DNA of 64,000 nucleotides, taken from Bacteroidetes bacterium 43-16 (lineage in GTDB: Bacteria; Bacteroidota; Bacteroidia; Chitinophagales; Chitinophagaceae). The notes under the pieces are model-generated. The model had not been told where the DNA came from and did not search any database. It worked only from the letters and a program-made list of their open reading frames with translations. Of the stretch, positions 26,838-39,617 are shown in pieces. The position numbers were made by a program, and so were the translations under genes. Location of the stretch: NCBI GenBank assembly GCA_001897525.1, contig MKTB01000024.1:1480-65479 (forward strand), in the 5' to 3' direction. Every line of letters starts with the position of its first letter. Positions within the stretch are counted from its first letter, which is position 1.

Positions 26838-28175
26838 ATGAAACCTGTAATCAGTATCTTACTACTTACTGCACTCGCTGTTACCGGGCGGGCACAGGAG
26901 CAATTCTCGCTTAAAGAGAGCATTGCCTATGGCTTGCAACACAACCGTACCGTAAGTATATATAAGAACAACAGGCTCCAGGCAGTACAAAAGGCACGCC
27001 AGGCAGCTTCCACCTATTTACCCAATGTCAACATCAGTGCAGGGCTTGATGACAACCTGAAACTTCCGGTCACCATCATTCCGGCAGGGACCTTTGGCCC
27101 CGGTACGCCGGAGCAAAGAGTGAGCTTCGGGACAAAGTTCAATTCAACCCATGTTGCACAACTCGATCAGCCTATCTTTGACAAAGCCGCCCTTACCGGT
27201 TTAAAAGCCAGGCAACCCAATATCGACTACGCGACATTAACAGAAACGCAGAATAATGAAAACCTGGTGTACAACATTGCTGTTGCCTATTTCAGGATCA
27301 TAGTAGCACAAAAACAACTCGATCTCTTACTGGACAACAAAACGCGCATGGAAAAGAACCTGGGCATAGCACAGCTCAGGGCACAGCAAGGCGTTGCCAA
27401 AAAGATCGACATCAAGCAGGTGCAGGTTAATATCAACAATATCGAGTCCCAGCTTTCCGTCACCCGCAACAGTCTTGAACTGGCGATCAACACCCTCAAA
27501 TTCAATATGGGCCTTGCTATAGATGAAAACATCCAGCTGAACGATACGGCAAGGTGGCTCAGTCCGGAAGACAAGGCCAAAAAAACAGACTTCTCTTTTG
27601 ATTACAAAAGAACGACCGACTATGCCCTGGACCAGACCCAGATCACCCTCCTGGACATTAACCGCAAAAACATCAGGGACAGCAGATACCCTACCCTGGG
27701 ACTCTATGCCCGGTATGGTGCTAACGGCTTTGGCAATAAACTCGGAGATGCTTACGAGCGCCTTTTCGATTTCGGTACCGTGGGCCTGAAATTCCAATGG
27801 AACATTTTTGCCGGCTTCCGTAAAGATGCCAATTACAAAATCGCCAACTATGATTTTGAAAATGCAAAAACCAATCTTTTACTGAAAGAAGACCAGCAAA
27901 GACTGACCTTCCAGAATGCAGGACTATCCTATTTCAGGGCAGAGAACACCATCACCAATAACAAAGAAAACATGGACCTGGCCAAAGAAGTCTATGATAA
28001 TGTAAGCCTCCAGAACAGGGAAGGCTTAGCTTCTCTCACCGACCTCCTTAATGCCGAAAACTCTTACCAGCAAGCCCAGAGCAACTATGTACAATCATTA
28101 CTGGATTATTACATCGCAGAGATTGAATTACGCAGGGCAAACGGCACCTTAATTGAATTCTACAACAACCTTTAA
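26838..28175 (+). CDS. TolC family outer membrane efflux protein
   Basis: Signal peptide; YLPNVNISA and YPTLGL repeats; helical C-terminus GLASLTDLLNAEN; position within the efflux operon. Confidence 0.93.
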   Translation: MKPVISILLLTALAVTGRAQEQFSLKESIAYGLQHNRTVSIYKNNRLQAVQKARQAASTYLPNVNISAGLDDNLKLPVTIIPAGTFGPGTPEQRVSFGTKFNSTHVAQLDQPIFDKAALTGLKARQPNIDYATLTETQNNENLVYNIAVAYFRIIVAQKQLDLLLDNKTRMEKNLGIAQLRAQQGVAKKIDIKQVQVNINNIESQLSVTRNSLELAINTLKFNMGLAIDENIQLNDTARWLSPEDKAKKTDFSFDYKRTTDYALDQTQITLLDINRKNIRDSRYPTLGLYARYGANGFGNKLGDAYERLFDFGTVGLKFQWNIFAGFRKDANYKIANYDFENAKTNLLLKEDQQRLTFQNAGLSYFRAENTITNNKENMDLAKEVYDNVSLQNREGLASLTDLLNAENSYQQAQSNYVQSLLDYYIAEIELRRANGTLIEFYNNL

Positions 28176-28214
28176 ACAAAAAAACATTCCACACTTTCCA
28201 CACACAACAATCAT

Positions 28215-29285
28215 ATGAACAAGAAATCCATCATTCCGATCATAGTAGTATTAGTACTCGCGGGACTTATTGGCTGGAGACTGGCTTCAAACAAGAAAAA
28301 GATAGACGATAAAAACAAGCCCGCAGTAGTTAAAGATATAGCTATCCCCGTCACCACCGCCACCGTGAAACGTGAAATGGTCAACAGCGAACTGACCAAA
28401 ACAGGAACCCTGACCCCGAATAAAGAAGCAGACATCACTGCAGCCACTGCAGGAAAATTGCTTTCGATTAATTTCAACCTGGGCAGCTATGTAGGCCAGG
28501 GCGGTACCGTAGCAACGGTCGACAGCCGCCAGCAAAGCCTCAACCTGCAACAGGCTAAAGTGACCAAAGCCAAATACGACAAAGACTTTGAGCGCTATAA
28601 AACCCTTTACGAAGGAGAAGCCGCTACGGAGATGAATTTCCAGGATGCCAAACTGCAAAGAGACAATGCATCCAACCAGATCGAACTGCTCAACAAGCAG
28701 ATCGCAGATGCCAGCGTTAAAGCACCGATCAGCGGCCAGGTAGTAAGCAAACTGAAAGAACCCGGAGAATACGTAAGTCCCGGTACCGCACTCGGCCACA
28801 TTGTAGACATTTCCGTCTTAAAAGCCAATGTAATGGTCAACGAAAAAGATGCTTACAATTTAAAAGTAGGAGATAAAGTAACCATAATGACCGATATCTA
28901 CCCTGGCGTAGCCCTTTCCGGCAGCATATCATTCATCAGCAACCAGGGAGATGCCACACACAGCTACCCGGTAGAGATCACTTTATCCAACAGCAAATCC
29001 TATCCGTTAAAAGCCGGAACTACCGTAACCGTAAACTTCAACAAAAAAGGCGGTGGCATGATGATGCTCATCCCGAGAACAGCACTGACACAAGGTATGA
29101 AAGCCCCTAAAGTATTCGTGGTTGAAAACGGTATTGCCCGTCTTAAAGACATTGTTATAGGCATGGAAATGGGTAACAGTGTAGAAGTGGTAAGTGGCAT
29201 AGAAGAAGGTGCACAAGTCATTACCAGTGGCCAGCTTAACATTAAAGACGGTTCAAAAATCAACCTGGTAAACATACAAAACTAA
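28215..29285 (+). CDS. RND efflux periplasmic adaptor subunit
   Basis: N-terminal TM anchor, VKAPISGQV lipoyl motif, LKAGTTV, GIEEGAQVITSGQ. Confidence 0.93.
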   Translation: MNKKSIIPIIVVLVLAGLIGWRLASNKKKIDDKNKPAVVKDIAIPVTTATVKREMVNSELTKTGTLTPNKEADITAATAGKLLSINFNLGSYVGQGGTVATVDSRQQSLNLQQAKVTKAKYDKDFERYKTLYEGEAATEMNFQDAKLQRDNASNQIELLNKQIADASVKAPISGQVVSKLKEPGEYVSPGTALGHIVDISVLKANVMVNEKDAYNLKVGDKVTIMTDIYPGVALSGSISFISNQGDATHSYPVEITLSNSKSYPLKAGTTVTVNFNKKGGGMMMLIPRTALTQGMKAPKVFVVENGIARLKDIVIGMEMGNSVEVVSGIEEGAQVITSGQLNIKDGSKINLVNIQN

Positions 29286-29328
29286 ACGTATTGTAAACAT
29301 ACACGACGCTATTAAAAGCATTTAATTC

Positions 29329-32300
29329 ATGAAAAAGCTAACCGAACTATCCATAAAAAGGCCCCTGTTAATCCTGGTAATTTTCACGGTGCTTATTTTA
29401 TTCGGTATCATCTCATACAAAAGCCTGAACTACAACCTGCTTCCTAAGTTTGATGCAAATGTAGTATCCGTAGTGACTACCTACAGGGGAGCCTCAGCCG
29501 ATGAGATCGAGAATACCGTAACCAAGAAAGTAGAGGATGCATTGTCCTCACTGGAAGGGATTAAAAAGATCACCTCTTCAAGCCAGGAAGGCGCTTCTGT
29601 CGTCACCGTAGAGCTGATCGCAGAGGCTAACGTAGACAAAGCGCAGAATGATGCACAAAGAAAAGTGGACCAGATCGCCTTATTGCTGCCTAAAGATGTA
29701 GACCGTTCTATTGTGAACAAATTCTCTTCCGACAACATCCCCGTAATGAGAATGGGAGTGTCTGCACAGACCGATGACAAAGACCTCTATGACATCATCG
29801 ACCAGCAGATCAAACCTCAACTGGGTAGTATTCCCGGTGTAGGACAGATCAACCTGATCGGGGGTAACGAGCGCCAGATCATCATCTCCGCCAACCCGGA
29901 AAAACTGGAGTCCTATAACATGACCATCGCCCAGTTGGCACAAGTCGTTAACCTGGCCAGCTTATCCACACCCGCCGGTAAGATCGAGACCGCCAGCGAC
30001 CAGTTCACCCTAAAATTCGATGCCAAGTTCAACGATATAGAACAGTTGAAAAGCATGGTCGTTTTAAGAGGAAAAGACGGTGGAGAAGTGCGCCTGAGCG
30101 ATGTGGCAGATGTTATGGACGGACAGACCGAAGTGACCAATATCAACCGCATCAATGGTCTTCCTTCCATCGGTATCCAGGTGATGAAACAATCAGATGC
30201 AAATGCCGTTGAAGTAAGTAAACTGGTGCAGAAAAAAATAACCGAGATCGAGGCCCAGTATGGCAAGCAAAACCTGAAATTCAATATCGCTTCCGATCAG
30301 AGTACCTATACCTTAGAGTCCGCCAATGCCGTAATGTTTGACCTGGCACTGGCCATCATCATTGTATCCTTCGTCATGCTCATGTTCTTACACAGCATAC
30401 GCAGTTCCCTCTTTGTACTCGTAGCCCTCCCGGCATCCATGATCCCGACCTTTATCTTCATGTATGTATTCGGCATGTCCCTTAATCTCATGACCTTAAT
30501 GGCCCTTTCCCTGGTAGTGGGTATCCTTGTGGATGACTCCATCGTAATCCTGGAGAACATCATGCGGCATATGGAAATGGGTAAAAACAAGCGCCAGGCC
30601 ACGATTGACGGGCGTTCCGAGATCGGTTTTACCGCCATGGCCATCACCCTGGTGGATGTTGTGGTATTCTTACCCATGGCATTAACCTCCGGTATGATCG
30701 GCAACATCCTGCGCGAATTTGCCTTAGTAGTGGTATGCTCTACCCTGATGAGCCTTATGGTCTGCTTTACGCTGACCCCGCTACTCGCTTCAAGATTTGC
30801 CAAGATCGTACACCTGGACAAGCGTACCGCCTGGGGCCGGATGAACCTATGGTTTGAAGACCAGATCACTAAAATAAGAGATGCATACACCAGCCTATTA
30901 CAATGGTGCCTGGGTAAAAAAAGATACGTCTTCATCCTGACCATTCTTTTATTAATCGGCTCCTTCACATTAGTAGGTAAAGGATTTATCGGCTTTGCCT
31001 TCATCAGTAAAGGCGACCAGGGCGAGCTGGTGGTGAAAATAGAAATGAGCCCTAACAGCTCCCTATACCAGACCAGCATGGCCACACAAGCCGCAGAACA
31101 GATCATCCTGAGGCAACCGGAAGTCAAAAATATGTTTACCAATATCGGTTATTCCAGTACCGGCGTAGCCACTACCAATAACAATAACCTTTCGGAGATC
31201 AACATAAAACTGGTTGACAAAAAAGACCGCAAGAAAAGTACCGAACAATTCACCAATGATATCTTTGACTCCTTAGCCAATATTACCGGGGCCAAGATCA
31301 CCATCGGCCAGATGGACATCATGGGTAATGCGGCACAGGCAGATATACAATACGTAGTGAAAGGTACCGACAGGGCGCAGGTGAAGAAAGTAGCCGAAGC
31401 CATGAAAAAGATGGTAGAGGAAACTCCGGGTACACAATACGTAGAATTCAGTACCAAGAATCCTAAACCACAGATCGAGATCTCACTGGACCGCCAGAAA
31501 ATGGCGATGTATGGTGTTAACCCAAGCGATGTGGCCAATGCAATCGCCAGCTCATTCCGGGGTAATGATAATGCCAAATTTACCTACAAAGGCAATGAGT
31601 ACGACATCATGGTGCAAAATGATGTATCCGACAGGTCCAGTATAGACAATATCAAAAACCTGAGTTTCCTGAACGCACAAGGGCAAAGCTTTACCCTGAG
31701 CCAGTTTGCAGCAGTAAATGAAGTAATGGGAGAAACCATCCTGCAACGTACCGACAGGCTGACCTCTATCCTCATCAATGCTACCTCAAACGGGCGTTCG
31801 CCGGGAACTATCGGCCAGGAATTGTCCAGAAAATTTGACGCTTATTTTAAGCAAAATAAAGAAGCCGTTGCCGGGGTAATCTATGAACCCTTCGGTAACC
31901 TGGCCAATACAGCCGATTCATTCATCAGCCTGTTGATGGCATTAGGCATCGGTATCGTATTGGTGTACCTCATCATGGTAGCCCTGTACGAAAATGCAAT
32001 CTATCCATTCGTAGTATTGTTTGCACTGCCACTGGCCATGATCGGGGCCTTCCTCGCCCTGGCCTTGACCATGAACGAGCTCACCATCTTTGCCATGATC
32101 GGTCTGATCATGCTCATGGGACTTGTGGCCAAAAACGGTATCCTCCTGGTTGACTTTACCAACCAGCGGAAAGCCGAAGGTGCAGGACTTATAGAAGCAT
32201 TGATCGATGCCGGTAAAGAGCGTTTCCGTCCCATCCTGATGACCACCATCGCCATGATCGTAGGTATGTTGCCTATTGCCCTGGCTACAGGTAGCGGTGC

Positions 32301-32481
32301 AGAAGTTAAAAATGGTATGGCCTGGGTGATCATCGGTGGGCTTACCAGCTCCTTACTGCTGACCCTCATCGTAGTGCCCTGTGTCTATTACCTGGTAGAT
32401 AAAATGCTGGGCAGGTTCAGAAGAAGAAGACGTAAAAAAGCCGTGAGGCTTGTTGTAGAAAGACAAGTGACCGGCCATTAA
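29329..32481 (+). CDS. RND efflux permease (AcrB/AcrD/AcrF family)
   Basis: GILVDDSIVILENI, AKNGILLVDF, RFRPILMTT; 1050 aa. Confidence 0.96.
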   Translation: MKKLTELSIKRPLLILVIFTVLILFGIISYKSLNYNLLPKFDANVVSVVTTYRGASADEIENTVTKKVEDALSSLEGIKKITSSSQEGASVVTVELIAEANVDKAQNDAQRKVDQIALLLPKDVDRSIVNKFSSDNIPVMRMGVSAQTDDKDLYDIIDQQIKPQLGSIPGVGQINLIGGNERQIIISANPEKLESYNMTIAQLAQVVNLASLSTPAGKIETASDQFTLKFDAKFNDIEQLKSMVVLRGKDGGEVRLSDVADVMDGQTEVTNINRINGLPSIGIQVMKQSDANAVEVSKLVQKKITEIEAQYGKQNLKFNIASDQSTYTLESANAVMFDLALAIIIVSFVMLMFLHSIRSSLFVLVALPASMIPTFIFMYVFGMSLNLMTLMALSLVVGILVDDSIVILENIMRHMEMGKNKRQATIDGRSEIGFTAMAITLVDVVVFLPMALTSGMIGNILREFALVVVCSTLMSLMVCFTLTPLLASRFAKIVHLDKRTAWGRMNLWFEDQITKIRDAYTSLLQWCLGKKRYVFILTILLLIGSFTLVGKGFIGFAFISKGDQGELVVKIEMSPNSSLYQTSMATQAAEQIILRQPEVKNMFTNIGYSSTGVATTNNNNLSEINIKLVDKKDRKKSTEQFTNDIFDSLANITGAKITIGQMDIMGNAAQADIQYVVKGTDRAQVKKVAEAMKKMVEETPGTQYVEFSTKNPKPQIEISLDRQKMAMYGVNPSDVANAIASSFRGNDNAKFTYKGNEYDIMVQNDVSDRSSIDNIKNLSFLNAQGQSFTLSQFAAVNEVMGETILQRTDRLTSILINATSNGRSPGTIGQELSRKFDAYFKQNKEAVAGVIYEPFGNLANTADSFISLLMALGIGIVLVYLIMVALYENAIYPFVVLFALPLAMIGAFLALALTMNELTIFAMIGLIMLMGLVAKNGILLVDFTNQRKAEGAGLIEALIDAGKERFRPILMTTIAMIVGMLPIALATGSGAEVKNGMAWVIIGGLTSSLLLTLIVVPCVYYLVDKMLGRFRRRRRKKAVRLVVERQVTGH

Positions 32482-32484
32482 AAT

Positions 32485-32520
32485 AAAAAATGACTGAACG
32501 CTCGTTCAGTCATTTTTTTT
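32485..32520 (+). terminator. Intrinsic terminator of the efflux operon
   Basis: aaaaaatgactgaacg-ct-cgttcagtcatttttttt. Confidence 0.88.
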
Positions 32521-32548
32521 AACTTCGGCACTCAATACAGCAATTACA

Positions 32549-33238
32549 ATGAAACCTAAACTGGTCATCTTATCAGGAGCCGGCATCAGCGCAGAGAGCG
32601 GCATACAAACCTTCCGGGACGGAGACGGCCTCTGGGAGAACCATAGAGTAGAAGATGTGGCCACGCCCGAAGCCTTTGCCCGGAACCCGCAGCTCGTACT
32701 TGACTTTTACAACTTTAGGAGAGCAGGAGTGAGAGAGGCACAACCGAATGCAGCACACCTGGGCCTGGCACAATTAGAAGAAGATTTCGAGGTACATATC
32801 ATTACCCAAAACATCGACGACCTGCACGAAAGAGCAGGCTCCACGAATGTGTACCACCTCCATGGCGAGATCTCAAAAATGCGCAGCGTTAATAATACCG
32901 ATGAACTCTTCCCCGTTGAAGGCGACATAAAACTGGGCGACCTTGCGCCCGATGGCGGCCAGCTTAGGCCACACATTGTATGGTTTGGCGAAGCCGTACC
33001 CATGATCTATGAAGTATTGCACCTGGTAGAAAAAGCAGATTTTTTTGTCGTCATTGGCACTTCATTACAAGTCTACCCCGCAGCAGGCCTGGTGCATGAG
33101 GTAACTCCCGGGACACCGGTATTTGTGATCGATCGTAAAATCCCATCTGTCGGGCACTTAAAAAATGTCACCAAAATTGAAAAGCCCGCGACTGAAGGTA
33201 TTCAAGAGCTGATCTCTAAATTACGCACCCGATTATAA
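32549..33238 (+). CDS. cobB: NAD-dependent protein deacylase (class III sirtuin)
   Basis: GAGISAESGIQTFR, TQNIDDLHERAG, HLHG, RPHIVWFGE, GTSLQVYPAA; FYNFRR carries the YxxR desuccinylase motif. Confidence 0.95.
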   Translation: MKPKLVILSGAGISAESGIQTFRDGDGLWENHRVEDVATPEAFARNPQLVLDFYNFRRAGVREAQPNAAHLGLAQLEEDFEVHIITQNIDDLHERAGSTNVYHLHGEISKMRSVNNTDELFPVEGDIKLGDLAPDGGQLRPHIVWFGEAVPMIYEVLHLVEKADFFVVIGTSLQVYPAAGLVHEVTPGTPVFVIDRKIPSVGHLKNVTKIEKPATEGIQELISKLRTRL

Positions 33239-33255
33239 TTATATATTCAAAGCAA

Positions 33256-33289
33256 AAAAACCGTTATCTCCGACAGGATAACGGTTTTT
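33256..33289 (+). terminator. Intrinsic terminator
   Basis: aaaaaccgttatc / gataacggttttt. Confidence 0.8.
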
Positions 33290-33591
33290 CTATTGAAGTA
33301 TCTCCAACAGGTTTCCTCTTTAACTAATGTTCCGTCCTTTGAATATGCACGAGATCGCAAAACCAAACTGAGGGTAAAGTATATTCAATCCAGGAACATT
33401 AAAAGTGATTAATTATCAATGTTATAGAAAACTTAATCTATTGAATGCCCAGACCATGGACCTATAGTTTTATCAGAAAATCATTAACTTTAATACTGCT
33501 TCCGGTGTGGATTGAATTGTTTGTAAACCCTCACAAGAAGCGATGACACATATCACCATTTTACCTTTTTGCTGGTATTAAAACAAGAAAT

Positions 33592-34746
33592 ATGGATCTG
33601 TTACAAAGATATCAAAAGGTACGTCAGTATTCTGAAACATTGGCCGCTCCCCTTATACCGGAAGACTTTTCCGTGCAACCGGCAGATTTTGTCTCCCCTC
33701 CAAAATGGCACCTGGCACATACCACCTGGTTTTGGGAACAATTTGTCTTGCTCCCCTTTTCAAAAGATTACAAAGTTTATGACGAGGACTTTGCCTACCT
33801 CTTCAACAGCTACTATAATAATGTAGGCAAAAGAGTATTACGTCCGGACAGGGGCAATATGACCCGGCCCGGCGTTGATGCCGTGATGCGCTACCGCGCT
33901 TATGTAGACAAGGCCATGCAGCAATTGCTGCAAACAGAAGTAGCCAGTGAAGTAAACAATATTATAGAAGTTGGCCTGAACCACGAAGAGCAGCACCAGG
34001 AATTATTTCTCTACGATATCAAATACATATTAGGCCATCAGCCTACATTCCCCGTTTATGGCCGCCCAGCAATCCTGCCATCCGAAAAAAAAGAACCCGG
34101 CTTTATAACCCTTAAAGAAGGCATCTACGAAATCGGGCATACAGGTGATGAGTTTTGTTTTGACAATGAACTGGGTCGCCATAAAGTCTATCTGCAGGAG
34201 GTTGCAATAGCCGACCGCCTCGTTACCAATAGCGAATACCTGGACTTCATCCATGCCGGTGGTTATGATGATTTCAATTTATGGCATGACGATGGATGGC
34301 ACTGGAAGCAGGAAAATAACATTGCGGCACCCATGTATTGGCACCTTATCGACAACGAGTGGTATGAGTATGACCTGGATGGCCTGCAACGATTAAACCC
34401 CGAAACTCCGGTAAAGCATATCAGCTTTTATGAAGCCTATGCTTACGCGTCCTGGCGCGGTATGCGCCTGCCTACAGAAGCAGAATGGGAAGCAGCCTCA
34501 GTACACTTTTCCTGGGGCAGTTTATGGGAATGGACCAACAGCGCTTACCTGCCCTATCCGGGTTTCAATAAAGCACCAGGAGCTTTAGGTGAGTACAATG
34601 GAAAATTCATGGTCAACACCATGGTACTGCGCGGGGCATCTGTAGCTACACCCGAAGACCATAGCCGCCGCAGCTACCGCAACTTTTTCTACCCGCACAT
34701 GCGCTGGCAATACGGAGGCATACGCCTGGCAAAAGACAGAATATAA
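33592..34746 (+). CDS. egtB: Ergothioneine biosynthesis sulfoxide synthase
   Basis: SPPKWHLAHTTWFWE, HEEQHQEL (Fe ligands), FGE-like domain with RLPTEAEWE, RRSYRNFFYP; adjacent egtD. Confidence 0.93.
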   Translation: MDLLQRYQKVRQYSETLAAPLIPEDFSVQPADFVSPPKWHLAHTTWFWEQFVLLPFSKDYKVYDEDFAYLFNSYYNNVGKRVLRPDRGNMTRPGVDAVMRYRAYVDKAMQQLLQTEVASEVNNIIEVGLNHEEQHQELFLYDIKYILGHQPTFPVYGRPAILPSEKKEPGFITLKEGIYEIGHTGDEFCFDNELGRHKVYLQEVAIADRLVTNSEYLDFIHAGGYDDFNLWHDDGWHWKQENNIAAPMYWHLIDNEWYEYDLDGLQRLNPETPVKHISFYEAYAYASWRGMRLPTEAEWEAASVHFSWGSLWEWTNSAYLPYPGFNKAPGALGEYNGKFMVNTMVLRGASVATPEDHSRRSYRNFFYPHMRWQYGGIRLAKDRI

Positions 34747-34772
34747 TGGTGAATGGTTAATGGTTAATTGAT
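34745..34772 (+). repeat. Short heptamer tandem repeat
   Basis: aatggtg aatggtt aatggtt aattgat, directly at the egtB stop. Confidence 0.6.
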
Positions 34773-34798
34773 TTTAGAAAGCAAGTAAAATAAAGTTT

Positions 34799-35806
34799 AT
34801 GCGACAAAAGGAAATATCTTCAACAAAAAATAGCAATAACTCAAGTCCAAAGACGAATACAGACAACAAGACTTTTCTGGCAGATGTATTAAAAGGATTG
34901 AGCCATCATCCCCAGAAAACACTATCCTCAAAATATTTTTATGATGAAAAAGGCAGTGCACTGTTCCGCAAGATCATGGCCCTGCCCGAATATTACCTTA
35001 CGCGCGCAGAAATGGATATCTTTCAAAACAAAACTGCTGAGCTCATTACCGCGCTTGAACTCGACAAGGCCATTAATTATGACCTAGTAGAACTGGGACC
35101 TGGCGATGGCACTAAGACCATCCATTTACTCAAAGGGCTGCTGGAACAAGGATACGCCTACAACTACCTGCCTATTGACATCTCTCAACATGCGCTCGAT
35201 GGGCTGGCAGATATGCTGGAAGAGCAAGTACCTGCCTTATCTGTAAAAGCCCTGCAAGGCGATTATTTTGAAAAACTCGGCATCCTCAAGTCTGCTCAGC
35301 GGCCTAAAGTAGTCCTGGTGCTGGGCTCTAATATCGGCAACCTCTCTGATGCAGAAGCCGCAACATTTATCCGGCAATTGAGCGACAACCTGAACCCGGG
35401 AGACAAGATCCTGCTTGGTGTAGATCTCATCAAACCCAAAGAAATAGTACTGCCTGCCTACGACGATAAGCAGGGCATTACAGCAGCCTTCAATATGAAC
35501 CTGCTCGAGCGGATCAACCACGAATTAGGGGCAGATTTTGACCTGTCACAGTTTGAACACCAGGCAGTCTACGAAGAGAAAGAAGGGCTCGCCAGCAGCT
35601 ACCTGGTAAGCAAAACAGCACAAACAGTGACCATAGATGGCCGGTCTTTCCGCTTTGCCCCCGGGGAGAGCATACATATGGAGATCTCCCGCAAATACAA
35701 TGATACCGTCATTAAACAAGTACTGGCCGGCACAGATATCCATATACAGTCCAGGATACTGGACAGCCGGGAATTGTTTGCCGACTACGTTTTAGCCCGG
35801 TCCTGA
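34799..35806 (+). CDS. egtD: L-histidine N-alpha-methyltransferase
   Basis: LSSKYFYDEKGS, PEYYLTRAE, ELGPGDGTK, LGSNIGN, AYDDKQGITAAFN, EISRKY. Confidence 0.95.
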   Translation: MRQKEISSTKNSNNSSPKTNTDNKTFLADVLKGLSHHPQKTLSSKYFYDEKGSALFRKIMALPEYYLTRAEMDIFQNKTAELITALELDKAINYDLVELGPGDGTKTIHLLKGLLEQGYAYNYLPIDISQHALDGLADMLEEQVPALSVKALQGDYFEKLGILKSAQRPKVVLVLGSNIGNLSDAEAATFIRQLSDNLNPGDKILLGVDLIKPKEIVLPAYDDKQGITAAFNMNLLERINHELGADFDLSQFEHQAVYEEKEGLASSYLVSKTAQTVTIDGRSFRFAPGESIHMEISRKYNDTVIKQVLAGTDIHIQSRILDSRELFADYVLARS

Positions 35807-35808
35807 TC

Positions 35809-37305
35809 TCATTTAACGGTGTTTGTTTTTCCTCCTTCTTTGTTCCGTTTCATGATCCGGAATAAAAAAGAAAGGATCTGCCCGCCATAGAAAAAACTGA
35901 AAGGAAGCGACATAATGATCAGCAGGTTACTGATGGCATTAAGTAAGGTATCCGAACCCAGGGCGGTCAAGCCCAATGCAGCAGCCGTGATGATTATACC
36001 CCAGGCCAGTTTATGGTGCTGCCGCGGATTGAGATTGCCCTGGTCAGAGAACATGGCCAGCACAAAAATGGCAGAGTCTACCGAATTAATAATAGACACG
36101 AGGACAAGCAGGGCCGTAATACCTATCGTGATACTGCTAAAAGGAAGCTGGTAAAAGAAATGATAGATAGAGGTAAAAACATCATCATACTCGCCGGAGT
36201 ACTGCCCGGCCTCCTGGATGAGGCTAATCGCTTTATTACTGAATATGCTGAACCAAAGCATCGTAGCCAGAGCCGGGACAATGATGGTGGCCACCAGGAA
36301 CTCCCGTATCGTCCTGCCCCTGGAGATGCGCGCAATAAAGATCCCGGTAAACGGTACCCAGGCAATCCAGAATGCCCAGTAAAAAACAGTCCAGTTATTG
36401 ACAAAGGTTTTACCGGTATGATATTCACCGATCGACAAACTCATTTCCGCAAAGTGGAGTACGTAATTTCCCAATGCACTCAGGGTGGGCCTGGCAAAAG
36501 ACACCCCGGTCAAAAACAAGGCGGTAAAGCACATTAGAGCGATACTCGCCACCATATCAAAATTAGCCAGGTATTTGATCACTTTCTGAATCCCAGTAAG
36601 TGCCGAAAAAGTCGCTATAACACCGATGCAAAGTACCGTAAGCAATAGCCCGGCATTACCCCAGTTCCATTGAAAAAATGTTTTAATACCACCCACAAAT
36701 TGCCCGGCCCCAAGGCCCAGCGAGGCGATCACACCCGTCAAAGTAATCAAGGTGATAAATATATACGTGAGCTGCGCAAACACCTTATTTTTATTACCCA
36801 GCAAAACTGCATGGGCGATGTTATACTCCTTGCGTATGTACATTTGCCAGGCTACCAGTAAGCCAAAGAGGCTGTATAGCGCCCAGGGCGTAAAGCCCCA
36901 GTGAAAAAAGGTATACTGTAATGCCAGTTGCTCCGGGGCTTTGTTATTTACTGGGGGATGCGTATAATAATAAACAGGCTCCTGCACCGCCCGCAGCAAA
37001 AGGCCTGAACCCATACCGGTACTGTACAGCAAAGCTATCCAGCTGAAACGGGAATATTCTGCGCCTTGCGTTCCCAGCCTTTTACGGCTAAAAGGCACTA
37101 CGATCAGCACCAATGACACGAGCACGACTAAGAAACCAAAAAGCAGGTAATAGTTAGCGAATACTTCAAGCACTATAGCATTAATGGCATTTAAACTATG
37201 GGTAATGAATACCGGGAACAAGATTCCGCCCAGCACCATAAGTACGCCAAAAATCGCTGCAGGCAATATCGTTCTGTTTTTTAGTATACTTATGAATCGG
37301 TTCAA
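35809..37305 (-). CDS. BCCT family (betaine/carnitine/choline) transporter
   Basis: YSTGMGSG, FFHWGFTPWALY, WTVFYWAFWIAWVPFTGIFIARISRGRTIREF; ~12 TM; TTG start. Confidence 0.92.
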   Translation of the reverse strand: MNRFISILKNRTILPAAIFGVLMVLGGILFPVFITHSLNAINAIVLEVFANYYLLFGFLVVLVSLVLIVVPFSRKRLGTQGAEYSRFSWIALLYSTGMGSGLLLRAVQEPVYYYTHPPVNNKAPEQLALQYTFFHWGFTPWALYSLFGLLVAWQMYIRKEYNIAHAVLLGNKNKVFAQLTYIFITLITLTGVIASLGLGAGQFVGGIKTFFQWNWGNAGLLLTVLCIGVIATFSALTGIQKVIKYLANFDMVASIALMCFTALFLTGVSFARPTLSALGNYVLHFAEMSLSIGEYHTGKTFVNNWTVFYWAFWIAWVPFTGIFIARISRGRTIREFLVATIIVPALATMLWFSIFSNKAISLIQEAGQYSGEYDDVFTSIYHFFYQLPFSSITIGITALLVLVSIINSVDSAIFVLAMFSDQGNLNPRQHHKLAWGIIITAAALGLTALGSDTLLNAISNLLIIMSLPFSFFYGGQILSFLFRIMKRNKEGGKTNTVK

Positions 37306-37520
37306 GATTAATCGTTTTTAAAACACCATCCTTTTCAATGCCATAGGGGCAGATAATGCCGGGGAATCGGCATTACTGTATCCACCAAATGCTATTCAAA
37401 TATACAGAATATAACAGCAAGGAAAATCAGCGCTACACAATATCCGCAAGTAGTTCTTTTTTTATTAAAAAAATATTACATTTGACTACCCTATTGTTTT
37501 AAGCGAAAAAATCCCTTGTC

Positions 37521-39617
37521 ATGAAGAAGAGAAAATTCATCCTCTACGCTTGCCTTTTATACGTATTCCTGGCCGGCATTTCATGGAAGGCATTTGCCCA
37601 GGGAGTAAATAACAACTGGCATTTCGGCACCTACAACGAGATCAGTTTCAACTCCGGCACACCCGTTTTCACCCAAAATTCTGCCGTCAGTACCTTTGAA
37701 AGCTCCGCTGCCGTAAGCGATGAAAACGGCGAACTGCTCTTCTATACCATGGGTGCACGCATCTGGGACAGGAACGGCACAGAGATGCCCAATGCCAATG
37801 GCCTCTTAGGGAACGGCCCCTTCAACGGTGGCATCGCTGCAGGCTCCGGCAGAAACAATGTACACATAGTACCCCATCCCGGCAACCCGGACCAGTATTT
37901 TGTTTTCTCTGCAGCAGCCATCGAAACACCGGGCGGAAAAGCTTATTACCATGTAGTAGACATGAGCCTGAATGGCGGACTGGGCGATGTAGTGCCCGGC
38001 ATGAAAAATATTGAGATCATAGAAGCACACGGGAGAGAAGCCTATACCGTCACCAGGGGCATCTGTGGCACCTACTGGTTCATTGGCTCTATGATGACCA
38101 GCCCGGTCTCTTATTACGCCTTTAAGATCGATGAAAACGGCGTGCACCAAAACCCCGTCATTACTTATGTACCCTATCACAATATGGCAGATATAGGTCC
38201 CACCGAGATTACCCGAAACGGTATCGCGATCTCTGCCAGCAGCAATAATGTGATGATGGCAGATTTTGATCAACAAAACGGTACGTTCAGCCATTTCCAG
38301 CTCTTTCCTAATGGACATACCGGGCAATACCTCGAGCTCTCTCCTAATCATGAAAAGTTCTACCTGATCCATTACAATAAGATCTGGCAATACGACCTGG
38401 ACCTCTACCCCAACGTAACGGGTATTGCCGCCACAGCATTGAACCTGGCCCCGGCAACATCGCCCCTTAATGTAACTTATGAAGACCTGAGACAAGCCCC
38501 TAACGGAAGCTTATACGCCGTCCGCCTAAACTTCAATAACCAGTTCCTCGAATCCTATTCCATCGACAAGATCAATAACCCGGATGCCTCCATAGCAGGC
38601 TTTAGCCTCAACGCCCTTCCCATACCTCAAAATGCCCGTTTTATTACCTTCGGCTCCTCCGTACTCCCCCGGCAACAGATCAATAAAATAATCCATCCGC
38701 AAGCCCGCCTGGATACCGTTATCTGCAAGGAGACCGCCATAACATTGCGTAGTCCCTACCCTGATTACAGCTACCAGTGGAGCAATGGAAATATATCTCC
38801 CCAGATCCAGGTGAGCCAGAGTGGCACCTATTGGGTCATTTCAAAATCAACTACAGATTGTACCTGGTACATTGACTCTTTCAAAGTAAGAAAGCAAGAG
38901 CCGGTAAATATAGACCTGGGGCCGGATACCACGATCTGCAAAGGAGATACCGCGCATATCAACGTCTATCAAGCAGGCATTGAACATTATTTATGGAATG
39001 ACGGAGACCCCGGTTTTGAAAAAAACATTACAGAAGCCGGTACCTACCACATCACCGTACAGCAAGGCGGATGTAGCTACTCAGATACCCTGAAGCTAAA
39101 AATAATTGACCCTTATTTCAGGATCATACCCGACGATACTGTTTTGTGTAAAGGAGACTTTTTGAGGCTCAATACCGAAAGCAATATGGACAACCAGGTT
39201 CAATGGGACAATGGACACAATGGTCCTTCTATCGAAATAAATGCACCAGGTAAGTACAGCGCCATTGCACAGAACCTATGCGGTCAATTAAGCGACACCG
39301 TAAATATCGACCCTGTAAATTGCCATTGCAAGCCGGAAATACCTACTGCATTTACCCCTAACGGAGATGGCAAAAATGATGTATTTACCCCTCTCTTAAG
39401 GTCAGACTGTGCACTAAAAGATTTTGAATTCAGCATTTTCAACCGGTATGGCACGAAGATCTATTTTTCAAATACAGCCGGGGCAGGCTGGAACGGCACC
39501 TATAGTAACCAAAAATTAGCCGACAATGGGGTCTATTTTTACCTGGTCAAACTGAGCAATAATTATGGCAATACAGAGCCGGTCATTTATAAAGGCCAGG
39601 TGACCCTGATCCGCTAA
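37521..39617 (+). CDS. T9SS type B sorting (gliding motility-associated C-terminal) domain protein
   Basis: Signal peptide; repeated CxGD..L..YxWxxG Ig-like units; IPTAFTPNGDGKND, IFNRYG, GVYFY, ending VTLIR. Confidence 0.92.
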   Translation: MKKRKFILYACLLYVFLAGISWKAFAQGVNNNWHFGTYNEISFNSGTPVFTQNSAVSTFESSAAVSDENGELLFYTMGARIWDRNGTEMPNANGLLGNGPFNGGIAAGSGRNNVHIVPHPGNPDQYFVFSAAAIETPGGKAYYHVVDMSLNGGLGDVVPGMKNIEIIEAHGREAYTVTRGICGTYWFIGSMMTSPVSYYAFKIDENGVHQNPVITYVPYHNMADIGPTEITRNGIAISASSNNVMMADFDQQNGTFSHFQLFPNGHTGQYLELSPNHEKFYLIHYNKIWQYDLDLYPNVTGIAATALNLAPATSPLNVTYEDLRQAPNGSLYAVRLNFNNQFLESYSIDKINNPDASIAGFSLNALPIPQNARFITFGSSVLPRQQINKIIHPQARLDTVICKETAITLRSPYPDYSYQWSNGNISPQIQVSQSGTYWVISKSTTDCTWYIDSFKVRKQEPVNIDLGPDTTICKGDTAHINVYQAGIEHYLWNDGDPGFEKNITEAGTYHITVQQGGCSYSDTLKLKIIDPYFRIIPDDTVLCKGDFLRLNTESNMDNQVQWDNGHNGPSIEINAPGKYSAIAQNLCGQLSDTVNIDPVNCHCKPEIPTAFTPNGDGKNDVFTPLLRSDCALKDFEFSIFNRYGTKIYFSNTAGAGWNGTYSNQKLADNGVYFYLVKLSNNYGNTEPVIYKGQVTLIR

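Follow-up and report, generated by a model that had tools for sequence, protein, structure and literature searches.

Ergothioneine and hercynine are histidine betaines, and the established ergothioneine transporters are, to our knowledge, only the animal protein OCTN1 and the bacterial ATP-binding cassette (ABC) system EgtUV. In a stretch of 64,000 nucleotides from Bacteroidetes bacterium 43-16 (GenBank assembly GCA_001897525.1, contig MKTB01000024.1; the whole stretch is called the window below), the ergothioneine biosynthesis genes egtB and egtD lie tail to tail with a gene for a secondary carrier of the BCCT family, and an original prediction made from the sequence proposed that this carrier moves ergothioneine or hercynine. 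Is the arrangement an accident of gene order, or does it point to the substrate? The carrier belongs to a BCCT clade with a remodelled binding region and a conserved, operon-level linkage to egt genes, and it probably handles ergothioneine and/or hercynine, uptake or recapture being the likelier direction. The substrate is suggested by gene context together with the preference of BCCTs for quaternary-ammonium compounds, and the direction by what is known of the family and by genomes in which the carrier persists although no working egt genes were found.

The genes concerned are located in the window as follows.

33592-34746, plus strand: egtB, encoding a short (384 aa) sulfoxide synthase with DinB_2 and FGE-sulfatase domains
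34799-35806, plus strand: egtD, encoding the hercynine-making histidine N-alpha-methyltransferase (335 aa)
35807-35808: spacer of 2 nt between the convergent stops of egtD and the BCCT gene, read from the sequence
35809-37305, minus strand: BCCT carrier gene (PF02028, TC 2.A.15), 498 aa from the first TTG

In profile searches EgtB passes the equivalog model TIGR03440 (517.8 bits, cut-off 360) and stays under the cut-off of the selenoneine synthase (SenA) model (346.8 bits, cut-off 420), while EgtD passes TIGR03438 (306.1 bits, cut-off 290.9) and matches PF10017 with E = 1.2e-98. With both equivalog models passed and 52 nt between the two genes on the same strand, they form an adjacent two-gene cluster, which from the size of the gap reads as one operon. 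The carrier matches PF02028 over its full length (369.8 bits, cut-off 27, profile positions 3-479 of 485). A second TTG (37264-37266, residue 14 of the longest open reading frame, ORF) fits the public protein of this gene, which has 485 aa, and both starts are possible. The last letter of the egtD TGA is position 35806, and the BCCT stop codon, on the opposite strand, covers 35809-35811; these coordinates confirm the originally reported distance between convergent stops, and the egtBD pair and the BCCT gene indeed cannot share a transcript.

Linkage of the carrier clade to egt genes

A protein search returned a large set of relatives of the carrier at 50-85% identity, all from Bacteroidota-type sources. 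A pattern scan over one genome per prokaryotic species yielded 75 loci, 53 of which (52 genes) fall in the Bacteroidota group. Flanking DNA was searched with the EgtB and EgtD proteins of the window and all flanking ORFs were clustered; 48 loci had usable flanks. Absence of conserved linkage with egt genes had been named beforehand among the results that would refute the proposal, and the linkage turned out to be strongly conserved: egtB and/or egtD lie within 10 kb of the clade BCCT in 38 of these 48 informative loci, in at least seven gene orders and in five named Bacteroidota families (Flavobacteriaceae, Weeksellaceae, Chitinophagaceae, Saprospiraceae and Cyclobacteriaceae). At most loci the egt and BCCT genes are co-directional and packed as in an operon. 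The BCCT gene is directly followed by egtD on the same strand in 27 loci, with gaps of -7 to 121 bp between longest ORFs, and three Algoriphagus genomes show an overlap of at least 14 bp between the BCCT ORF and egtB. The usual operon is egtB-DUF427-flavoprotein reductase-BCCT-egtD, and the orders counted are these.

egtB-(DUF427)-reductase-BCCT-egtD(-racemase-like): Flavobacterium, Chitinophagaceae, Saprospiraceae
egtB-hydrolase/OsmC-(two unknowns)-BCCT-egtD
egtB-BCCT-egtD
DUF427-BCCT-egtD-egtB
DUF427-BCCT-egtB-egtD: Algoriphagus and one further genome
two unknowns-BCCT-thiolase-egtD: Kaistella, some Flavobacterium
convergent egtB-egtD / BCCT: window lineage only

The convergent trio, with the same flanks (Sir2 and a type IX secretion system, T9SS, protein), recurs in an Edaphocola metagenome-assembled genome (MAG; loci L006 with L053) and in the metagenome contigs L088 and L089, whose BCCTs are 86% and 81% identical to that of the window; the three relatives span 80-86%. 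The convergent form is thus a local rearrangement restricted to the window lineage, and the caution in the original prediction, that convergence might make the link coincidental, does not carry over to a clade that is mostly co-directional. In L088 the BCCT gene and egtD are separated (L088:7437-9306) by about 1.5 kb of extra DNA and by a second, partial copy of the BCCT C-terminus (residues 382-489, 69% identity).

The Kaistella-type layout (L031:96-7436, L032, L034, L038 and L050) begins with two proteins that match no family (278 and 179 aa), followed by the BCCT, a thiolase, egtD, a racemase-like protein and an aldehyde dehydrogenase. The DNA fetched at these loci contains no egtB; the gene for sulfur insertion lies at another site, or else these loci make a different product.

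Next to unlinked BCCT genes (those of L002, L004, L005, L012, L039, L043, L077, L078, L080 and L081), only unrelated genes were found, and a search of these loci for ergothioneine catabolism or other informative genes found none. Counted separately, ten genomes have a clade BCCT away from egt genes; six of them have an intact egtD elsewhere, one has broken copies only and three have none.

Phylogeny and co-occurrence with EgtD

A maximum-likelihood tree of 76 BCCTs was built by a quick search, with support from the Shimodaira-Hasegawa-like approximate likelihood ratio test (SH-aLRT) only and with BetP-like sequences set as outgroup. The core clade comprises 42 sequences (SH-aLRT 100), 32 of them egt-linked, and its sister clade, made up of Algoriphagus and one other genome (support 98), is linked in all four of its loci. 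The next sister group, about 40% identical (L077, L078, L080, L081), has no linked member among its four, and marine metagenome contigs of similar identity (L090-L103, about 40%) are also unlinked. Outside these clades stand two Desulfobacterales clades adjoining genes for MttB-family methyltransferases. Linkage that persists across a deep node and through many rearrangements is the pattern expected of genes that work together.

Co-occurrence was assessed in 401 genomes of the phylum, about 113 of them from the class of the window, with a BCCT match threshold of E < 1e-80. Within the class, a clade-like BCCT is present in 6 of 33 EgtD-positive genomes and in none of 80 EgtD-negative ones; the chance of all six falling among the EgtD-positives is about 4e-4, before correction for relatedness. 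The only core-clade member in the 401-genome sample is that of the window's own genome, the other five relatives being just 37-42% identical. A genome of the same genus (L116) keeps the OEP-MFP-RND-Sir2 synteny of window positions 26838-33238 (TolC-like, membrane-fusion, resistance-nodulation-division (RND) and Sir2 proteins). In the 9.7 kb fetched beyond its Sir2 gene no match to egtB, egtD, the BCCT, the T9SS protein or the TonB receptor was found, and the genome as a whole has neither egtD nor this BCCT; the three genes egtB, egtD and BCCT are therefore present or absent together.

Two further loci deserve mention. In the family of the window, L117:7312-12309 carries egtB-egtD-DUF427, a divergent class-V aminotransferase, possibly an EgtE-like C-S lyase, and a distant BCCT (27% identity, YWANW box) that lacks GMGxG. 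This BCCT type was considered as an independent recruitment and rejected: six homologues of 45-48% identity, found in 301 genomes of the class, have no egt genes within 8 kb, and the locus was not counted as support. L030, in a MAG labelled Pyrinomonadaceae (Acidobacteriota), contains a Bacteroidota-type island with MsrA, a peroxiredoxin, DUF427, a hydrolase-OsmC protein, a UDG-like protein, the reductase and the BCCT, which reflects either horizontal transfer or a binning error.

Remodelling of the substrate pocket

The carrier stays under every NCBIfam cut-off, including those of betaine_BCCT (NF047988, glycine betaine uptake of the BetP/OpuD type; 340.5 bits, cut-off 650) and of the general BCCT subfamily TIGR00842 (307 bits, cut-off 407.55). 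Residue equivalences with BetP were taken from the HMMER alignment to BetP chains in PDB, which covers residues 11-478 of the query. The segments of interest, in transmembrane helices (TM) 3 and 8 and next to the former, are listed below.

36358-36381, minus strand: TM8 box YWAFWIAW, residues 309-316, with the F312 codon at 36370-36372
37003-37017, minus strand: TM3 glycine stretch GMGSG, residues 97-101, with S100 at BetP I152
36991-36996, minus strand: clade-specific L104 and R105, at BetP F156 and Y157

The translation and the alignment bear out two readings of the original prediction, namely that the TM8 box is YWAFWIAW where BetP has YWAWWISW and that the GMGxG motif is kept (as GMGSG) with a glycine, G101, at the position of BetP G153. 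The tryptophans W310, W313 and W316 correspond to BetP W371, W374 and W377, and W136, W141 and Y144 to W189, W194 and Y197 of BetP TM4; all six are kept. BetP W373 is replaced by F312, and the complete TM8 Trp box (W373/W374/W377) is thus absent. F312 and the GMGSG stretch are invariant in an alignment of 30 clade sequences, and F312 was found in all 50 Bacteroidota clade members examined.

When the egt-linked clades were compared with the MttB-linked and BetP-like groups, several positions proved to be fixed in the former and different elsewhere: Y94 (BetP F146), T96 (A148), S100 (I152), L104 (F156), R105 (Y157), Q108 (T160), T139 (H192), F301 (W362) and a few more in later helices. At what we take to be the sodium-site residues of BetP, T246 aligns to T188, T250 to V192, T467 to N407 and S468 to S408. 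A cryo-EM preprint on BetP names Trp373, Trp374 and Trp377 as the Trp box and counts Tyr157, His192, Phe146 and Phe156 with the main residues that surround the substrate pocket (10.1101/2022.06.02.493408), and in the occluded state of Vibrio BccT1 the ectoine ring is reportedly too large for the pocket that the three TM8 tryptophans form (10.1101/2020.05.29.123752). The substitutions W373F, Y157R, F156L, H192T, I152S and F146Y all affect residues that these papers place in or beside the pocket. The changes in the clade thus fall on the very part of the protein that sets the size and the lining of the pocket. Two aromatics have become smaller (W373F, F156L), polar or charged side chains (Ser, Thr, Gln, Arg) have been gained, and the residues that cage a trimethylammonium group are retained. 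Judged from the sequence, these changes would fit a bulkier and more polar betaine, for instance a histidine betaine, although they do not prove it.

The altered aromatic cage of the original prediction is therefore real as far as W373F goes, but on its own this substitution carries little weight. It was rejected as a specificity marker for ergothioneine, the same phenylalanine being present in Desulfobacterales BCCTs next to MttB genes and in two Clostridia sequences. In those Desulfobacterales loci (L054-L072 and L104-L113), the W373F BCCT genes lie directly beside genes for MttB-family (non-pyrrolysine) methyltransferases, and carrier and enzyme together make up a module by which quaternary amines are taken up and demethylated. 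The broader proposal of an ergothioneine or hercynine carrier is supported by the conserved egt linkage.

Operon partners and the oxidative-stress island

Between egtB and the BCCT gene, most Flavobacterium and Chitinophagaceae operons encode two further proteins, a DUF427 protein of 93 aa and a class-I flavoprotein disulfide reductase of 456 aa, as at L013:8311-9978; the pair also occurs in L016, L019, L021-L024, L003, L015 and others. The reductase is related to RclA, to the hypothiocyanous acid (HOSCN) reductase MerA and to mycothione reductase, and it just reaches the cut-off of NCBIfam PRK06370.1-4 (629.5 bits, cut-off 629), by which it corresponds to the PRK06370 partner in Table 1 of PMC13674229. 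That 2026 survey covered the genes up to 5 kb away from EgtB-type enzymes. Its table gives betaine-type ABC transporters as the most frequent neighbours without a biosynthetic role (13.6%), also lists DUF427 (5.7%), a 'Lpd/PRK06370' flavoprotein (4.0%) and a racemase (0.8%), and contains no BCCT (PMC13674229 Table 1). The operon reductase is a candidate enzyme for returning oxidised ergothioneine to its reduced form.

In L011, L017, L027, L031 and L050, the egt/BCCT operons are part of a larger co-directional oxidative-stress island with several methionine-sulfoxide reductases (MsrA/MsrB), an MsrAB fusion, a peroxiredoxin, BrxC, a hydrolase-OsmC fusion, a UDG-like protein and an AraC regulator. 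Two of these proteins, the peroxiredoxin and MsrAB, have lipoprotein signal peptides.

Surroundings of the window locus

Upstream of egtB lie an RND efflux operon and a Sir2 deacylase, and downstream a T9SS-sorted protein and a TonB-dependent receptor, surroundings that place the window in Bacteroidota. The window's genome, which is 100% complete, has one BCCT gene (a single match), and no OpuAC-type binding domain (PF04069), DUF427 or close homologue of the operon reductase was found in it. The DNA beyond the BCCT start has the following features.

37306-37520: divergent intergenic region, presumed to hold the BCCT promoter and leader, a function inferred only
37397-37404, minus strand: TATATTTG box, read from the sequence, resembling the Bacteroidota -7 promoter element
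37354-37361 / 37368-37375: perfect 8-bp inverted repeat with a 6-nt spacer, in the BCCT leader/promoter region

A search for riboswitches and known RNAs over 32400-37700 gave nothing credible, and scans for sigma-70 promoters and intrinsic terminators returned no more sites than in shuffled sequence.

Substrate and direction of transport

Characterised BCCTs are ion-coupled importers or substrate/product antiporters, CaiT being an antiporter. The secondary BCCT carrier and the neighbouring egtBD genes probably act as one functional module, in which the most likely role of the carrier would be ion-coupled uptake, to scavenge ergothioneine or hercynine from outside and to recapture molecules that have leaked. 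Genomes in which synthesis seems to have been lost bear on the direction. In a marine Flavobacterium MAG (L010:7140-11461) the operon retains an egtB remnant (residues 283-357, 40% identity) and a DUF427 remnant, and a second egtB-egtD pair of the same genome (G005:C46:25405-27412) has many stop codons and frameshifts; the BCCT is intact, as is the reductase (72% identity to the Flavobacterium counterpart). An intact clade BCCT is also present in three related MAGs of 5.1-5.3 Mb (L004, L005, L009), in which neither egtB nor egtD could be detected. A carrier that is kept where synthesis has been lost is more easily explained as an importer, although this argument is only suggestive.

Release of ergothioneine or hercynine in order to protect the cell envelope or the surroundings appears unlikely, though it is a serious alternative to uptake. 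It would agree with a carrier embedded in biosynthetic operons, and the lipoprotein signals of the island peroxiredoxin and MsrAB indicate that part of the system works outside the cytoplasm; mycobacteria secrete ergothioneine, and their exporter is not known (PMC12689799, which states that no ergothioneine exporter is known at all). Export sits poorly both with the transport modes of the BCCTs characterised so far and with the intact carriers of the MAG with decayed egtB and egtD and of the three egt-less MAGs, where there would be nothing to export. Rather improbable as well, if somewhat less so than export, is a general importer of osmolytes such as glycine betaine, proline betaine or similar betaines, which would simply be carried along in a stress island that contains egtBD as well. 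The carrier retains W189, W194, Y197, W374, W377 and GMGxG of BetP, it is the only BCCT of a genome without an OpuAC-type binding protein, and some source annotations label its relatives 'glycine betaine transporter'; against this stand the specific coupling to egtD or egtB through at least seven rearrangements, the score of 340 against the betaine-BCCT cut-off of 650, the several clade-specific substitutions in the pocket, the missing BetP-type terminal extensions and the restriction of the carrier to EgtD-positive genomes in the class sample. That the adjacency in the window is a coincidence between unrelated functions would agree with convergent genes that have no common transcript, but is very improbable given the 38 of 48 clade loci with egt linkage and the same convergent trio in three further relatives at 80-86% identity.

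Several observations weigh against an ergothioneine or hercynine carrier. In ten loci of the core clade no egt gene lies within 10 kb, this carrier is missing from many EgtD-positive Bacteroidota, and the next sister group, like contigs L090-L103, has most of the signature residues yet no egt neighbours. W373F is common to the MttB-neighbouring BCCTs and so is no mark of ergothioneine. The island is one of general oxidative stress (Msr, peroxiredoxin, BrxC, OsmC), in which the carrier could have another stress role, and as the sole recognisable quaternary-amine transporter of the window's genome it may also serve ordinary betaine uptake. Finally, the genomes without egt genes are MAGs whose completeness is unknown.

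Transport of ergothioneine and/or hercynine by the carrier is nevertheless the reading we favour. A wider proposal can be put forward more tentatively, at somewhat less than even chances: that the carrier is the first BCCT transporter of ergothioneine or hercynine, that in most Bacteroidota it is part of a dedicated ergothioneine redox operon (egtB-DUF427-PRK06370-type reductase-BCCT-egtD, amid methionine-sulfoxide reductases and peroxiredoxins), and that the reductase is the enzyme by which bacteria recycle oxidised ergothioneine. A full-text literature search found no paper describing a BCCT-type ergothioneine transporter; in a paper of December 2025, Corynebacterium BCCTs were tested and deletion of betP had only a marginal effect (PMC12689799). 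If the favoured reading is true, a well-studied family would gain a new class of substrate through a BCCT subfamily devoted to ergothioneine or hercynine, and one gene would serve as a simple tool with which production strains could be engineered to take up or retain ergothioneine. Bacteroidota, barely considered in ergothioneine biology, would then both synthesise and import this antioxidant, and the DUF427 and flavoprotein disulfide reductase partners are directly testable candidates for ergothioneine recycling.

Comparison with known transport systems

Among solved structures the best match of the carrier (about 213 bits) is BetP, the Na+/glycine betaine symporter of Corynebacterium glutamicum, with which it shares TM4 W189/W194/Y197, TM8 W371/W374/W377 and the TM3 GMGxG motif. 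It differs from BetP in having only about 10 N-terminal and 20 C-terminal residues beyond the aligned core, with no long extensions, in the substitutions W373F, I152S, F156L, Y157R, H192T, W362F, T250V and T467N, and in a context of ergothioneine synthesis, whereas that of BetP is osmoregulation. Identity to BCCTs outside its clade is about 30% in local alignments, BetP itself not being among the sequences compared. The Desulfobacterales BCCTs adjacent to MttB share W373F and are nearer to the clade than the BetP-like outgroup sequences, but they are only about 31% identical, have GMGIG or GIGLG instead of GMGSG, keep an aromatic residue at BetP Y157 and the histidine at H192, and occur in a context of anaerobic quaternary-amine demethylation.

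The known ergothioneine transporters belong to other protein families. OCTN1/SLC22A4 of animals is described in PMC12689799 as a secondary ergothioneine carrier that also takes other betaines weakly; it is a eukaryotic protein of the major facilitator superfamily and is not homologous to the carrier. EgtUV (EgtU), a proven and ergothioneine-specific importer as cited in PMC12689799, belongs to the quaternary-amine ABC family (Helicobacter pylori, Streptococcus pneumoniae) and is similar in proposed substrate and role; it is ATP-driven and relies on a binding protein, whereas the carrier is a single ion-coupled polypeptide of an unrelated family. The EgtUV-type ABC architecture with its OpuAC-type domain was not found, the carrier being a BCCT and the window's genome lacking PF04069, so that the carrier may be EgtUV-like in function and is not an EgtUV member. 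Set beside the ABC systems that occur in egt operons of many phyla (PMC13674229 Table 1), it looks like their Bacteroidota counterpart in operon position and in the class of its probable substrate.

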